Shown in pieces: positions 2,568 through 45,022 of a stretch of 64,000 nucleotides of DNA (the first letter of the stretch is position 1; the number at the start of each line of letters is the position of its first letter). The notes under the pieces were generated by a model. That model ran no database searches. It saw nothing but the letters and a program-made list of their open reading frames with translations, and was not told the DNA's origin. Made by a program: the position numbers and the translations under genes. Source of the DNA: Escherichia phage JoYop. The stretch lies in sequence record OR769032.1; one strand, written 5' to 3'.

Positions 2568-2608
2568 AGTATTTTCCTCAGTAAGGGGCCGAAGCCCCTC
2601 ATTTTATT

Positions 2609-2974
2609 TTAAATATCAAATTCGTTAAGAACTACATCAAAGATTGCTTCAAGATGCTCAGGTTTAGCTCTGTTACTCAGAATATGACGAATCCAAGTTT
2701 TAACCAGAAGCTTGCGATTAACGCCATTCCAGCAAGGATGAGTCCCTAAATCGCGTTGACGAAAATCATCATCCAAAGCGATTTTGAAGTTAGAGCCTTC
2801 CATTGTGATTGAAACTGTGATGCCATTTTCAAATCGCATATAAACGTAGTTAGGAGTCATATACTGTTCAATTTCGCATACTGATCCATTTTGATGTTTC
2901 CAAAGGCAAATAGTATCAATAGAACCTGCAATACCATTAGAAACATATTTACGTTCGAAGTTGATGTAGTTCAT
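2609..2974 (-). CDS. hypothetical protein, ~121 aa
   Basis: Track ORF starts at TTG within the RBS (MENKM...); true start taken as ATG at 2974 after GGAGAA. Confidence 0.5.
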   Translation of the reverse strand: MNYINFERKYVSNGIAGSIDTICLWKHQNGSVCEIEQYMTPNYVYMRFENGITVSITMEGSNFKIALDDDFRQRDLGTHPCWNGVNRKLLVKTWIRHILSNRAKPEHLEAIFDVVLNEFDI

Positions 2975-40155: not shown

Positions 40156-40255
40156 AGTAAGCGTTTAATACATCAATCATTAAAACGATTGGGAATATAC
40201 TCAAAACAACTAAAATTATAATTATATTCCATATAGCTTTAACAATCTTTTTCAT
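40142..40255 (-). CDS. small membrane peptide, ~37 aa
   Basis: Track ORF trimmed to ATG at 40255 (MKKIVKAIWNIIIILVVLSIFPIVLMI...); upstream part is the early promoter. Confidence 0.35.
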   Translation of the reverse strand: MKKIVKAIWNIIIILVVLSIFPIVLMIDVLNAYFGFM

Positions 40256-40283
40256 TTTCTGTTCCTCCGTAGTTGATAGTTGT

Positions 40284-40312
40284 ATAGTACCACAGAGGAA
40301 CAGTCTTGTAAA
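40284..40312 (-). promoter_or_regulatory. early promoter (TTTACA-N17-TGG TACTAT)
   Basis: Conserved family member. Confidence 0.65.
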
Positions 40313-40319
40313 CCACTTT

Positions 40320-40418
40320 TTAAAAATATTCGTAATAAATGTGAATACCAATCACTACTGCCGAAACTTGCGCAACCCACCACGCACAAGCAATAAGTAC
40401 AGAATTCAAAATTTTCAT
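40320..40418 (-). CDS. hydrophobic micro-ORF, 32 aa
   Basis: Hand-translated MKILNSVLIACAWWVAQVSAVVIGIHIYYEYF; GAGGT RBS; ATGA-coupled to upstream micro-ORF. Confidence 0.3.
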   Translation of the reverse strand: MKILNSVLIACAWWVAQVSAVVIGIHIYYEYF

Positions 40419-40529: not shown

Positions 40530-40736
40530 TCAATAATCCGCTAAAAGATCAACGATTGCATCACGAAGACATTTATTCGCAATACGTTTAAGAGCAATTT
40601 CAGTTTCAGGCGCATTTCGAATAATCATTGAATTCAATTCAGCTTCGGCAAACTGAAGTTCTTTGACTAATTCAGCTTTATATTTTCCTTGACCTTTCTT
40701 AGCTTTTGCTCGTTTTAATTCAGCTGTAGTAAACAT
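40530..40736 (-). CDS. hypothetical protein, ~68 aa
   Basis: Track ORF trimmed to ATG at 40736 (MFTTAELKRAKAKK...). Confidence 0.4.
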   Translation of the reverse strand: MFTTAELKRAKAKKGQGKYKAELVKELQFAEAELNSMIIRNAPETEIALKRIANKCLRDAIVDLLADY

Positions 40737-40770
40737 TTTATTCTCCAAATCCGTATCAGTTGATAGTTGT

Positions 40771-40799
40771 ATAGTACCACAGTCCTTGTGGTATGTAAA
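40771..40799 (-). promoter_or_regulatory. early promoter (TTTACA-N17-TGG TACTAT)
   Basis: Conserved family member between denB and next ORF. Confidence 0.65.
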
Positions 40800-40816
40800 C
40801 CATTTTGTGAAAATTT

Positions 40817-41374
40817 TTAAATGGAAAGATACCATCCGTTGTAGTTACTTTTTCTTACAACCTTACGAAGGTCTTCTCTATCACCGATGAACTTCGGAGT
40901 GTACTGGATGACACCTGGATGAATTTCTTTAGTGTTGAATATAATTATACAGTCTGCGACCTGATGATTTAGAATGGGCCCTAGATTTATTCCAGAACCG
41001 TACGGATACTCTCCGCTGCATCCTGTTGTTACCGAAATCCAACGAGAGTCAGTTTGATGTGTTTTGACTTCTACTCGAAGACCGCAGTATTTTGGATGTG
41101 CCAAAACATCCCATGCATATGTATACGGGTCATCGACATCTTCTTGACCTTTGTTAACATACCCGCTTAGCCAATCTGCTACAAAAAATTCTGCGTACAC
41201 AGCGATACGGCATCTTTCGATAACTTCTGCCTTATCCTGATTTGGATTTTGCTTTAAAGAATATCTTGCAGTATCAGCAATTTTGACCTTCATTTCACTA
41301 GTCAAGTCACCGTTCGATAGGGTAAATGTCGGAATCTGAAATAGTCTCTGTAGCCCCGGATTCGTTTTCTGCAT
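40817..41374 (-). CDS. denB: endonuclease IV
   Basis: 185 aa as in T4 DenB, position upstream of ndd cluster. Confidence 0.75.
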   Translation of the reverse strand: MQKTNPGLQRLFQIPTFTLSNGDLTSEMKVKIADTARYSLKQNPNQDKAEVIERCRIAVYAEFFVADWLSGYVNKGQEDVDDPYTYAWDVLAHPKYCGLRVEVKTHQTDSRWISVTTGCSGEYPYGSGINLGPILNHQVADCIIIFNTKEIHPGVIQYTPKFIGDREDLRKVVRKSNYNGWYLSI

Positions 41375-41636
41375 TTAGACTTTCCTTTTTACCGCTGAGA
41401 TAAGCGTTATACACTTTAAGAGTACCGTAGTAAATTCGATCGTTTTCATCTAAAGACTCGCGGTCAAGTTCATCGAGTTCCTTTTTATCCATGACTATAA
41501 CATCATTACAGTAAAGAAACCCAAGTTTTTCGTGACCAAACTCAAATTTATTACAGTACACAATATTAGCGTGATGATTTCCGTGTAGTTTAATCTCTTT
41601 TATGTCGGAATCACCGATATTCATACAATAAATCAT
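41307..41636 (-). CDS. hypothetical protein, 109 aa (denB.1 position)
   Basis: ORF track; 68-nt out-of-frame overlap with denB start, so boundary uncertain. Confidence 0.4.
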   Translation of the reverse strand: MIYCMNIGDSDIKEIKLHGNHHANIVYCNKFEFGHEKLGFLYCNDVIVMDKKELDELDRESLDENDRIYYGTLKVYNAYLSGKKESLNAENESGATETISDSDIYPIER

Positions 41637-41653
41637 AATTTACCTTAAAACAA

Positions 41654-41683
41654 AAGGGCCGAAGCCCTTATTTAAATTGTTCA
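41654..41683. repeat. 30-bp direct repeat, copy 1 (stop codon plus UUCG hairpin)
   Basis: aagggccgaagcccttatttaaattgttca; identical to 41881..41910. Confidence 0.9.
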
Positions 41684-41862
41684 ATTCTTTTCTCTAGACA
41701 TTCAGCATAAGATTTCATTGAGATAAACTGTGAAAGCAGTAATTCTTGTTCAACTTCATTAACTGTTAGAAACTTCGTGCTTTCTAAAAATTTGCCCAGT
41801 GCATTAATTTTGAGCATTAATTGTTCGTATTCTTCTTTTACTCGTGCTTGATAACCTAGCAT
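41668..41862 (-). CDS. hypothetical protein, 64 aa
   Basis: ORF track; ends EQFK-stop-hairpin exactly like rIIB. Confidence 0.45.
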   Translation of the reverse strand: MLGYQARVKEEYEQLMLKINALGKFLESTKFLTVNEVEQELLLSQFISMKSYAECLEKRIEQFK

Positions 41863-41880
41863 AATTTTCCTTAGTATGAT

Positions 41881-41910
41881 AAGGGCCGAAGCCCTTATTT
41901 AAATTGTTCA
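41881..41910. repeat. 30-bp direct repeat, copy 2 (3' end of rIIB plus UUCG hairpin)
   Basis: Identical to 41654..41683. Confidence 0.9.
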
Positions 41911-42833
41911 GTAACGTCTTCAACTACTTCGTATTGGCAGGTACGCATTTTAGCATCGTTGTAATCAATCGGAATTGATACTACATCACGAGGATGTACT
42001 TTAACTTTTACAACTCGGCTGGTTGAACTGCCAAAGTGACGAATATAAGATTTAGAACACACATGCAGACCACGAGAACAAGTTTGTGTATCATCGTCAT
42101 TCACACGAGTACGTGGCATTTTAACTACTTTACCCGGACTGTTATCAAAGGTATTTGAGTGACAGTCAAAGTAATTACTGCGAACTACTTTCCAAGCATA
42201 GAAGTAACCATCTTCTGTAATTTCAATATCGTTTGCTACCAAGAAATCAAAGAGTCGAGATACCGCTTTCTGGCTCGGGTTTTCCAACAGATTTTCCAAG
42301 AACGGAAAATAGAATTCAAAGTTTTCGCCTTTTTCCATCGAGTCAAGAATACGATCAACCAGACCAGACCGTAATTCGATATTTTGATAGAACAAGCTTC
42401 CACCTTCAATTCGAACATCGCCGGAAATATATTTTTCAACAGCGCGACGAACATTAATTTTTTGTGCTGCTTCTTCCAACTTATCCGCTACGAGCAGATT
42501 AAGAATTTCCTGGAAGTTTGAATGAGTGTTAGGAGTTGCGTTATAAGTTACACCATCAACGGTAATTGAAATGAATTTTTTAGATGCATTCCAAATAATG
42601 TCAGATTTAGCAACTGGAGCAATAGCTGCATCGCTCTTAACTGTAACTGTAATGTCACCGCTAATGGTAACTTTGGAGCGCTCAGCTTCTTCAGCATTTT
42701 TCAAAACACGACGGATTGTGTCCACCGATACACCTTGCCAATCAGCCAATTCCTGTTGGGTGTAATTACCACTTGAATACAGTTTAACGATTTCAGCTTG
42801 TTCGTTTTTGGTCAGGCATTTAATATTGTACAT
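41895..42833 (-). CDS. rIIB: rIIB protein
   Basis: 312 aa as in T4 rIIB. Confidence 0.92.
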   Translation of the reverse strand: MYNIKCLTKNEQAEIVKLYSSGNYTQQELADWQGVSVDTIRRVLKNAEEAERSKVTISGDITVTVKSDAAIAPVAKSDIIWNASKKFISITVDGVTYNATPNTHSNFQEILNLLVADKLEEAAQKINVRRAVEKYISGDVRIEGGSLFYQNIELRSGLVDRILDSMEKGENFEFYFPFLENLLENPSQKAVSRLFDFLVANDIEITEDGYFYAWKVVRSNYFDCHSNTFDNSPGKVVKMPRTRVNDDDTQTCSRGLHVCSKSYIRHFGSSTSRVVKVKVHPRDVVSIPIDYNDAKMRTCQYEVVEDVTEQFK

Positions 42834-42844
42834 AATTTTCCTTA

Positions 42845-45022
42845 TTAGGCCGCAAGGGCCTTCATAGTTTTAGCGATTTGGGAAACTTCATCATCACTTA
42901 AAGAGTTGCGATAACCGATGAAGTCGGAAACAATACGGAATTTCTTGGTAAACTCAGCAACCATTTTATCACTGTTTTTTGAAGCATTATATGATAATTT
43001 ATCAAAAAGATTAGTTACTGTCCAGATGTCATGACCGATGGTATCTTTTCCACCGTTGAAATATACACCCTGTAATGAACTAACCATATTAGCGAGTCGT
43101 GTATATTTTTCAGAAACTTCATCTGTACTAAAGTACTTCATCATAAAATCTAACTCAGGATACTTGATGATTTTATCAATATATCGTTTAGCTGAACTTG
43201 AATAACCTACGTACTCATCATAATCTACATCATCAAAAGCATCTACATATAAATCACGCACAGTTTCAAAAATACATTGGCACTGACCAAGTTCTTTTAC
43301 CTTTTTCTGTAAAAGAGGACGAATAACATAAAATTCATTAATGCCAATAAGATTAGCCATACGAATCAAAATATTCATAGATGGATTACAAAGAGATGTA
43401 GTACCATCCATAGAAAAAATATCAGAACGATGCATAAACGCTACATAACCAGTAATTTCATCTGCTTCTGATGTAAGCGTAAATAGTTCTTCTTTTTCCC
43501 AACGCCCATCTTTAATTTCAAACTTAAACGCTGTAGCAGCTTTAGGACGAGGAGCTTTACTTTTAACTGCCTTCGGAATATAACTTTTAACTAAAGCTTC
43601 AATTTCTGACAAATAATGAATGTTAACTTCATCACTTTCAAACATCGCCATAATATCAGGAAGTAAATCAATTTGTGATTCTACTTCCGGGTTAATAAAC
43701 AGAAGACGCTCATTATGATGAATATTTAAAGTGTTATTAAATTCACTATCATCTAACGCATGTGCTAATCCACGGACAATATTAACACGATTTTTAATAT
43801 CATCAATAACGATATTAATTTTTGTTGTATTAATACCAAACAGACGATAGCTTGATGCAACGGCTGAAGTTTCATGGCTTTGCTTAATGCGTTTCAGTCG
43901 AGGGTCAAGATTTACTTCATACACAACCCCTGCATTACATAACTTACTATCAGGTTCAAACATGCTCTGCATCTTCTTATATGACAGATTTTTAGTCGTG
44001 AATTTGACTGAATTACTAATCATATAATCTCGAGCAGAATACCCCATCTTCATTAATTCGCGATATGTGTGACGAGGAGATGTAGATTCTTTAAATCGTT
44101 TTACATCTTCATTGAATGCCTTCTCACTAAGCTCTTTAACTCGTTCAATAATATTTTTACGAGTACGATCATCCAGTGAAAGAGCCTCGCGAGATGGAGC
44201 AATATCAAGTGAACCCATTGGAAACTTAATGTAATTCACTTCATTGCGAATGCTTAACCAATTACGCTCTCTAATAACACCATCAATAGGATAAACAATA
44301 CCGCCATATATGGCATACAATCCGCCGCGATCTGGCCAGTATCTTTCTGGATTTACGCCATAATAATCATCAAAATCTGGAAAATAATCAATTTCGCGGT
44401 CAAGACCATTAATGATAGCCAAATCTTTGAACGGTCGCATGATATAAGAAACTTCATAAGCAAAGTTTCTAAAGTCTTTTTCTTCAACTGGAACTACGAT
44501 TTCAATACCAGTTTTATCATCTGGACCCATTTCTTTTACGAATGTAGGTTTAATCTGTGGACCATCGCCATCCATATAAGCTACATAACCACGAATTTCG
44601 CCTTTATGATACGAAGTAATACTAAACGTATCAGTATAACTAAACGGAGATTTAGAACCTAAACCAAATCCACCAATGAAATCGTTGGATTCGGCTTTAG
44701 ATGAACTGAAGTATGAATTATACAAACCAGGAGAATTATCATCACCCTGAATATCAAAATCACTCATACCTGGACCAAAATCTCGGCAAACAAATCGTGG
44801 ATCTAATCGTCCAGGAACTTGAATGATAAATTTTTCAGGATTTCCATTGAGTGCATGAGCATCAATCATGTTAGTAATTAATTCACGAACTACTGCGCGA
44901 ATCTTGTTTGTATATAAATCAGACGACAGAATTTTAAATACTTTAGGAGATGCTGTGATGCTAAATGCTTTTGATTTAGAACCATTGCCCAGAATTGTTT
45001 CTTTTTCAGTGGTGATAATCAT
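42845..45022 (-). CDS. rIIA: rIIA protein
   Basis: 725 aa as in T4 rIIA; N-terminal GHKL-type ATPase-like motif [11 protein letters not shown]. Confidence 0.95.

Follow-up and report, generated by a model that had tools for sequence, protein, structure and literature searches.

A direct repeat at the 3′ ends of rIIB and denB.1

The DNA that we analysed (hereafter the window) is a stretch of 64,000 nucleotides from Escherichia phage JoYop (OR769032.1); its best match is Escherichia phage PaulHMueller (97.8%), and it belongs to the genus Tequatrovirus. A first-pass annotation, made without database searches, had named one of the genes at the locus rIIB, and this identification is right, as the window carries rIIA and rIIB of a Tequatrovirus. 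On the minus strand, rIIA (42845-45022), rIIB (41895..42833, 312 aa) and a reading frame of 64 aa (41668..41862) are read in series. The last of these is denB.1, an annotated T4 gene that is assigned to phrog_774 and encodes a full-length member of the Pfam family PF21825 (crAss001_48-related; E=3.8e-19). Downstream of denB.1 lie a minus-strand gene for a 109-aa DUF7418 protein (Pfam PF24193; 41307..41636) and denB (40817-41374).

The window holds exactly two copies of the 30-mer AAGGGCCGAAGCCCTTATTTAAATTGTTCA (41654-41683 and 41881-41910), both on the plus strand, with no mismatches and a distance of 227 nucleotides from start to start. The chance expectation for a repeat of this length is 0, and none of 100 dinucleotide-preserving shuffles matched it; the exact repeat with two copies 227 bp apart that had been reported for this locus is thus confirmed. 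On the minus strand, the copy at the 3′ end of rIIB (41881..41910) consists of the codons GAA CAA TTT AAA, the stop codon TAA and a hairpin that we call hairpin 1, and the copy at the 3′ end of denB.1 (41654..41683) consists of the same codons and stop followed through into hairpin 2, so that both proteins end in EQFK. The 30 bp of identity comprise a hairpin of 16 nt and the 14 coding nucleotides that precede it in each copy. The earlier description of each copy as EQFK and a stop codon with a UUCG hairpin after them holds for the sequence, but not for the arrangement: the hairpin overlaps the stop codon by 2 nt, since at both sites the AAGGGC 5′ arm begins with the AA of TAA.

Structure and distribution of the two hairpins

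Hairpin 1 (41879..41898, minus strand) has the form AUAAGGGC-UUCG-GCCCUUAU, with a stem of 8 bp that contains the whole rIIB stop codon. The 16-nt hairpin folds as predicted, with a centroid energy of -11.9 kcal/mol for the rIIB copy. No U-tract follows hairpin 1. The coding strand on its 3′ side reads AUCAUACUAAGG, a scan for terminator-like sites did not call it, and it is followed by the Shine-Dalgarno sequence of denB.1. The translation initiation region of denB.1 (41863..41878, minus strand) reads CAUACUAAGGAAAAUU, then AUG, and resembles the RegA-operator sequence of rIIB, AAAAUUAUGUAC (operator quoted in PMC3014915). A search of Rfam with positions 41200-42300 returned no family at E<=1.

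As outgroups we used Bp7, JS98 (Dhakavirus), VR20 (Gaprivervirus), CIP9 (Kanagawavirus) and Klebsiella phage kv_tblp8. All five keep a UUCG hairpin after rIIB, with the stems GGAGGC/GCCUCC, GGGGC/GCCCC or GGGGAC/GUCCCC. Across the sampled lineages, compensatory double changes are seen in four of the six pairs and 95.8% of cells are paired, and the observed covariation score was reached by none of 500 shuffles. On this comparative evidence, hairpin 1 is an old, structurally conserved RNA element shared by several lineages of Tevenvirinae. It likely serves as an mRNA 3′-end or processing barrier, or as a structure that terminating ribosomes must melt. In CIP9 and kv_tblp8 a U-tract follows its counterpart, unlike in Tequatrovirus.

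Hairpin 2 (41654..41669, minus strand) is AAGGGC-UUCG-GCCCUU, with a 6-bp stem, and is restricted to Tequatrovirus. No hairpin follows denB.1 in any of the five outgroups, in which the DUF7418 gene begins 0-7 nt past the denB.1 stop codon; by its distribution, hairpin 2 is a Tequatrovirus innovation. Its sequence is too invariant for a covariation test. The window contains 14 CUUCGG hairpins with stems of at least 4 bp, and since hairpins 1 and 2 are identical at 16 of 16 core positions, while the 12 others all have different stems, hairpin 2 appears to be a copy of the 'K-stop-hairpin' end of rIIB. It is directly followed by a U-rich tract (41645..41653, minus strand; UUGUUUUAA, or UUUUGUUUU when the last two U's of the stem are counted). 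Hairpin 2 with its tail, TTGTTTTAAG, scores as terminator-like, having a GC-rich stem-loop, a stable tetraloop and a U-tract directly after it, and the annotation of phage G2133 places an ARNOLD terminator at this site. In these sequence features hairpin 2 is like intrinsic terminators, and hairpin 1, with no U-tract, is not. We infer that hairpin 2 and its U-tract could form an intrinsic terminator or attenuator that closes the rIIB-denB.1 unit.

Conservation of denB.1

The first-pass annotation had proposed that the repeat could mediate deletion of the intervening reading frame, and that T-even genomes be compared for its presence or absence. With the INPHARED phage collection as the denominator, our comparison rests on 497 Tequatrovirus records that carry this region. 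The body of denB.1 is found at a coverage of at least 80% in 496 records, and tblastn at an identity of at least 80% also gives 496. The gene occurs at the same position in Dhakavirus, Gaprivervirus, Kanagawavirus and a Klebsiella T4-like phage, and the order rIIB, hairpin, denB.1, DUF7418 gene, denB is common to all five outgroups. Found in about 496 of 497 Tequatrovirus records as well as in these four sampled lineages outside the genus, denB.1 is no variable insert, and we rejected the idea that T-evens differ in having or lacking it. Its pN/pS of 0.13 (24 distinct alleles) indicates purifying selection. The sole record with a broken denB.1 is PTE-Eco15, in which the lesion is an internal 12-nt deletion with a frameshift, unrelated to the repeats.

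The deletion junction predicted from recombination between the two copies was not found in sequenced relatives. When a synthetic rIIB/hairpin/DUF7418 junction was used as query, the 30 best matches were all in two pieces that span 332-342 nt, with denB.1 still between them. The exact junction had no matches in metagenome and genome collections, in which only about three contigs show even the normal junction; similarly, scans of IMG/VR and metagenomes for junction patterns reached just 2-4 T-even contigs, so the zero there weighs little. Nor did we find a relative that has a single copy of the repeat and no denB.1, as expected of an insertion footprint; the outgroups have the gene and one hairpin. 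Deletion of the gene is mechanistically still possible, and laboratory T4 strains that lack 52.1-rIIB are viable (PMC9712115, Table 1), which indicates that denB.1 is dispensable in culture, yet it is retained in nature. The repeat could on rare occasions give rise to loss of denB.1, but the gene is kept by selection.

Two kinds of match could be mistaken for rearrangement at the repeat. Two-piece matches of the T4/T2 type might be read as absence of denB.1, but what splits them is the loss of 213 nt from within the DUF7418 gene. This in-frame deletion occurs in T4, T2, PST and EP01, and the DUF7418 gene is the truly variable gene at the locus. In Sf24, a two-piece denB.1 match that might suggest unequal crossing-over at the repeat comes instead from the DUF7418 gene, which is duplicated in tandem there (gp121/gp122). 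Another plastic spot near rIIB-denB is a variable ORF of 68 aa.

A graded series of denB.1 tails

We compared the two tails in a panel of 27 distinct Tequatrovirus genomes, which is enriched for alleles without a spacer and whose members are phylogenetically non-independent. The rIIB tail and hairpin 1 are almost invariant in the panel, with TTC in one contig. A hairpin with the identical 16-nt core also follows denB.1 in most of the 27 genomes, and the denB.1 tail is polymorphic, with nine states. These states combine variation at codon 61, which is GCR (Ala) or GAA (Glu), at codon 63, which is TTC or TTT, and in the spacer between the denB.1 stop codon and GGGC, which is 0, +4 (ATAA), +5 (AATAA), +6 or +10 (AAGTAAAAGA). 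The spacers are built of tandem AAAT, AAATA or AAGTAA units, which are typical of slippage.

We denote the alleles by the residue at codon 61, codon 63 and the spacer length. The perfect 30-bp repeat corresponds to E/TTT/0, which is found in the window, PaulHMueller, G2133 and Sa45lw. Sf23, SHFML-11, SHFML-26, ESh29 and KMB42 also fall into this class, by identical alignment statistics, and the class amounts to about eight phages in the collection. The other spacer-free alleles are A/TTT/0 (ECML-363 and ZCEC15), E/TTC/0 (BCPEco001) and A/TTC/0 (PhiZZ30 and S2_01). Among alleles with a spacer, a48 has E/TTC/+4, and T4, T2, T6, PST, Shfl2 and the rest have A/TTC with a spacer of 4-10 nt. A query with the T2-type junction matched 280 records at a coverage of at least 80%, and over 95% of T-evens have a diverged denB.1 tail (Ala, TTC and 4-10 nt from stop to hairpin). 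The perfect repeat is thus a rare allele that closes a graded series.

Four hairpin variants are confined to one copy: in hairpin 1 only, the loop is UCCG in PST and T6 and UUUG in IMGVR_d, and bov10K1 and VEc74 have a differing hairpin 2 stem. Both hairpins of Sf24 contain an additional G, for which a context-specific homopolymer sequencing error is possible, and the T4 reference likewise shows an apparent 1-nt stem difference.

Direction of change

In the outgroups, the denB.1 product ends in RISYFGE*, RIARF* (GCA CGA TTC) or RIQRF*, and rIIB keeps TEQF. These tails imply that Q/R-F near the two C-termini is ancestral in each gene independently, that Ala (GCA) and TTC are ancestral in denB.1, and that the Glu and TTT of the window are derived in the direction of rIIB. 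The polarity of Glu and TTT thus comes from the outgroups; the spacer-free state is a candidate derived state in the lineage of the window. The heading of the first-pass annotation had the 3′ end of rIIB duplicated onto its neighbour, and this direction agrees with a near-invariant rIIB tail and a polymorphic denB.1 tail that was ancestrally Ala/TTC.

The same annotation considered that its reading would fail if relatives had the reading frame without the flanking repeat, and such relatives exist. In the outgroups denB.1 stands without a second hairpin, from which it follows that the gene predates the repeat, and in most T-evens, T4, T2 and T6 among them, the 16-nt hairpin is common to both sites but the tail has diverged. 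What survives of the proposal that the repeat is a footprint of recombination at a hairpin element is that the identity is centred on a hairpin; the reading frame as an insert or a likely target of deletion does not.

Origin of the identical tails

We consider it probable that the feature consists of two T4-type intercistronic C(UUCG)G hairpins that bracket the conserved early gene denB.1, and that the identity of the tails is specific to a lineage. In the course of events that we propose, hairpin 2 would have been added after denB.1 in the ancestor of Tequatrovirus, most likely as a copy of the rIIB end. Because both genes would already have ended in x-Q/R-F by independent ancestry, the outcome of this step would have been a repeat of about 26 nt with imperfect identity. 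A minority of T-evens, the phage of the window among them, would then have had three differences resolved towards rIIB, namely no A-rich spacer, TTC to TTT and GCA to GAA, giving identity at 30 of 30 positions. The part next to the hairpin could have been changed by short-patch gene conversion or by template switching primed at the identical hairpins, and an ordinary point mutation may account for at least the change to Glu. The repeat would be a by-product, not a device. The general description (conservation of denB.1, the allele series and its polarity) is much firmer than the proposal of conversion, and for conversion of at least the hairpin-proximal part we regard the arguments for and against as about evenly balanced.

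The main alternative to copying is that none took place once hairpin 2 had arisen, and that point mutations (GCA to GAA and TTC to TTT) and slippage made already similar C-termini converge on 30 identical positions. Each change is a single mutation or slippage of AAAT(A), both tails were ancestrally x-Q/R-F, and all four combinations of Ala or Glu with TTC or TTT exist; these points weigh against conversion. The spacer lengths of +4, +5, +6 and +10 are likewise as expected of slippage in tandem units, and the hairpin variants are mostly unshared between the copies. Moreover, Glu is present in BCPEco001, which lacks TTT, and in a48, which has a spacer; these two phages contradict a simple model of one continuous tract, and we rejected a single-step conversion of all three differences as it does not fit them. 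Against convergence, the derived states all match rIIB, which favours conversion or template switching, and the two 16-nt hairpins are identical to each other when the other UUCG hairpins of the window have differing stems. TTT is limited to alleles without a spacer (six of nine, against none of 18 with a spacer; Fisher p=2.8e-4, in an enriched and non-independent panel), as would be expected of a tract running outward from the hairpin. The extra G in both hairpins of Sf24 also favours conversion, with the reservation that it might be a sequencing error, and there is a contig whose two tails share TTC. E/TTT/0 turns up at three or more places in an NJ tree built from the flanks, which carries no support values; as T-evens recombine heavily, this scatter may reflect exchange between genomes and not recurrence. 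Weighing these points, we regard convergence without any copying as unlikely.

Two further explanations concern the unit as a whole. The first-pass annotation's view would make denB.1 a mobile or dispensable cassette, inserted between two hairpin copies in the manner of a PeSL-flanked gene or a target duplication, and prone to excision. PeSLs are composites of about 100 bp in which a stem-loop and a Shine-Dalgarno sequence are joined to an early promoter (T4/PST consensus TTTACW-N17-TAYWAT); ORFans lie between them and are excised through them (PMC2839356, PMC4122927). The bracket of direct repeats around denB.1 has the geometry of those ORFans, which are excised as mini-circles in RB49 and phi1 (PMC2839356), and the plasticity near rIIB-denB (the DUF7418 deletion and the variable 68-aa ORF) and the viability of the laboratory deletion strains are also in keeping with a cassette. 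Against it stand the near-universal presence of denB.1 in Tequatrovirus and its presence without hairpin 2 in four other lineages, the purifying selection on the gene, the missing deletion junction and the PTE-Eco15 lesion, which is not an excision between the repeats. The 15-16 nt from each hairpin to the next AUG also leave no room for a promoter. The cassette model is largely refuted, and we hold it to be very improbable. Still more improbable, in our judgement, is selection for some function common to both copies of the complete 30-nt unit, such as a nuclease or RNA-binding site with an embedded stop codon, or an EQFK C-terminal tag. The near-invariance of the rIIB tail and hairpin across Tequatrovirus and the stop codon embedded in the stem of both copies could suggest such a function, but the great majority of T-evens thrive with a diverged denB.1 tail, the outgroup tails differ and lack hairpin 2, and the unit has no Rfam match.

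Returning to the hairpin pair with lineage-specific tail identity, a stronger version would hold that the hairpins are, in T-even populations, a still-active site of short-patch conversion or template switching that repeatedly rewrites the end of denB.1 to that of rIIB, the change from Ala to Glu included, and that lineages with the perfect repeat produce denB.1 deletions or mini-circles at a rate measurably above that of T4 or T2. We think this rather unlikely; if true, the site would be a promoter-less counterpart of PeSL-mediated shuffling.

Relation to known elements

According to PMC8948821, which cites Tuerk et al. 1988, the intergenic regions of T4 are particularly rich in CUUCGG hairpins, which stop reverse transcriptase and can stabilize transcripts. 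Both hairpins at this locus match the T4 pattern (X)2-8 CUUCGG (Y)2-8, as AAGGG-CUUCGG-CCCUU with stems of 6 and 8 bp. They also share with T4 C(UUCG)G hairpins an intergenic place between a stop codon and the next Shine-Dalgarno sequence, a high predicted stability and their occurrence in many copies per genome. Unlike in typical cases, two identical 16-nt copies here bracket one gene, and the identity extends 14 nt into both coding regions. The feature is an ordinary T4 intercistronic hairpin pair with a lineage-specific extension of identity. Our literature search found no description of the pair of hairpins flanking denB.1, nor of the restricted distribution of hairpin 2.

Misalignment and template-switch mutagenesis of the kind studied by Ripley has reportedly been described in T4 rIIB. 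Deletions at short repeats in rII, and the role of homology length, are also the subject of classic work; our literature search on the formation of T4 deletions at direct repeats returned nothing specific. Template switching is reported to homogenize the arms of inverted repeats (PMC8604942). The tails resemble such cases of concerted evolution or templated mutation in that changes at several sites of one copy match the other copy and are anchored beside a hairpin. They differ in that the repeats are direct and not inverted, the tract is not cleanly continuous, and the evidence is comparative.

The repeat shares with PeSLs a repeated intergenic stem-loop with a Shine-Dalgarno sequence and a start codon, placed on either side of a small gene where the genome is plastic and non-essential. 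The consequence proposed for it, excision of the gene by recombination between the two copies, is also that of PeSLs. It differs in being 30 bp long and not about 100 bp, in flanking a conserved gene and not an ORFan, and in that none of the indels of relatives lies at the repeat. The sole promoter-like match, over hairpin 1, is TTTAAA-16-TATCAT, a weak match (9/12) that does not fit the PeSL consensus and whose -10 element is deleted in the T4, Shfl2 and G2133-type spacer. We rejected membership in the PeSL class, as the element contains no early promoter; the repeat may nevertheless act as a weak recombination substrate of the PeSL type.

The feature has little significance beyond the natural history of T4 genomes. 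A bracket of perfect repeats around a gene does not necessarily mark a mobile or dispensable cassette, and the analysis corrects this tempting misreading. It documents an rIIB 3′ hairpin whose structure is conserved across several lineages of Tevenvirinae, with a second, identical and terminator-looking copy in Tequatrovirus. The allele series provides a compact natural data set on slippage, and possibly on templated mutation or conversion, at a hairpin. A better candidate for a PeSL-type arrangement lies about 1 kb downstream, at 40235-40295 and 40722-40782.

Variation of the DUF7418 gene

The truly variable gene of the rIIB-denB locus is the one encoding a 109-amino-acid DUF7418 protein (41307-41636, minus strand). 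Its full-length form appears to be kept in about 230 of the 497 Tequatrovirus records carrying this region. In phages T4, T2, PST and EP01 (loci L003, L002, L005 and L028, respectively), the gene carries an in-frame deletion of 213 nt bordered by the microhomologies TAAAAG and TAAAAAG, which leaves an intact ORF of 37-38 amino acids that overlaps the start of denB and is not annotated in T4. The start region of the gene is missing in Shfl2 and Geo, and PhiZZ30 has a frameshift in it. In Shigella phage Sf24 (locus L009, 1035-1629), the DUF7418 gene is duplicated in tandem between denB.1 and denB, and its two copies, gp122 and gp121, are annotated as similar to each other.

Position of the U-tract and start regions

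In two outgroup phages, Kanagawavirus CIP9 (locus L032) and the Klebsiella T4-like phage kv_tblp8 (L033), a U-run (UUUUUU or UUUCUU) comes after the rIIB hairpin, which therefore looks like a terminator ahead of denB.1. In Tequatrovirus, by contrast, the U-tract belongs not to the rIIB hairpin (hairpin 1) but to the hairpin after denB.1 (hairpin 2). This difference in sequence suggests that the boundary of the transcription unit may have shifted from before denB.1 to after it.

The start regions behind hairpins 1 and 2 (41860-41878 and 41634-41650, minus strand) are similar to RegA translational-operator sequences quoted in PMC3014915. The denB.1 start region reads AAAAUUAUGC in the window and AAAAUUAUGU in T4, for comparison with the rIIB operator sequence AAAAUUAUGUAC (PMC3014915), and that of the DUF7418 gene, AAAUUAUGAUU, is identical to the gene 44 site quoted there. 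Together with the start region of rIIB (42831-42847), those of denB.1 and the DUF7418 gene make up repeat family D2.

Other hairpins and a PeSL-type candidate

Two further UUCG hairpins with 9-bp stems, located 54 kb apart on the minus strand (at about 3473 and 57906), share 21 identical nucleotides (AGGACTCCTTCGGGAGTCCTT), and a T-run comes after each of them; judged by sequence, they are another near-identical pair of terminator hairpins. The hairpin UGAGGGGC-UUCG-GCCCCUUA (about 2575-2610, minus strand) has flanks similar to those of hairpin 1, with AAAUAAAAU upstream and ACUGAGGAAAAUA downstream ahead of an AUG, which suggests that stop-hairpin-Shine-Dalgarno cassettes form a loose family.

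What looks like a genuine promoter-early stem-loop (PeSL)-type cassette lies downstream. Read on the minus strand, it contains a 61-nt repeat, perfect over a core of 24 nt, whose copies are 487 bp apart (40235-40295 and 40722-40782, plus 40307-40330 and 40794-40817). Adjacent to this repeat are an inverted repeat (40259-40303) and a T4-early-promoter-like site whose TTTACA-17-TACTAT sequence has a TG extension (40799-40771). The 61-nt repeat pair brackets a small ORF that is annotated as a 207-nt CDS in T2, PST and PaulHMueller and is absent from T4. Mechanical ORF calling gives 101 amino acids (40530-40835, minus strand), of which the part upstream of Met34 is the promoter-repeat region. The true start is probably this internal Met34 (MFTTAEL..., 68 amino acids, 40530-40736), in agreement with the CDS annotated in relatives.

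Irregular T4 and PTE-Eco15 records

In the T4 reference NC_000866 (locus L003, 2228-2245 and 2452-2470), hairpin 1 is short of one G (AAGGC...GCCCUU) and hairpin 2 of one C (AAAGGGC...GCCUUUU), which leaves both stems unbalanced; hairpin 2 is balanced in the T4-like metagenome contig ULRM01008302. The two missing nucleotides may reflect either old compression errors at GC hairpins or a genuine difference. In Escherichia phage PTE-Eco15 (locus L026, about 701-867), a 12-nt deletion and a frameshift cut denB.1 to 17 amino acids; either the gene has been knocked out naturally or the sequence is misassembled. Small reverse-strand ORFs are annotated in place of denB.1 in that record.
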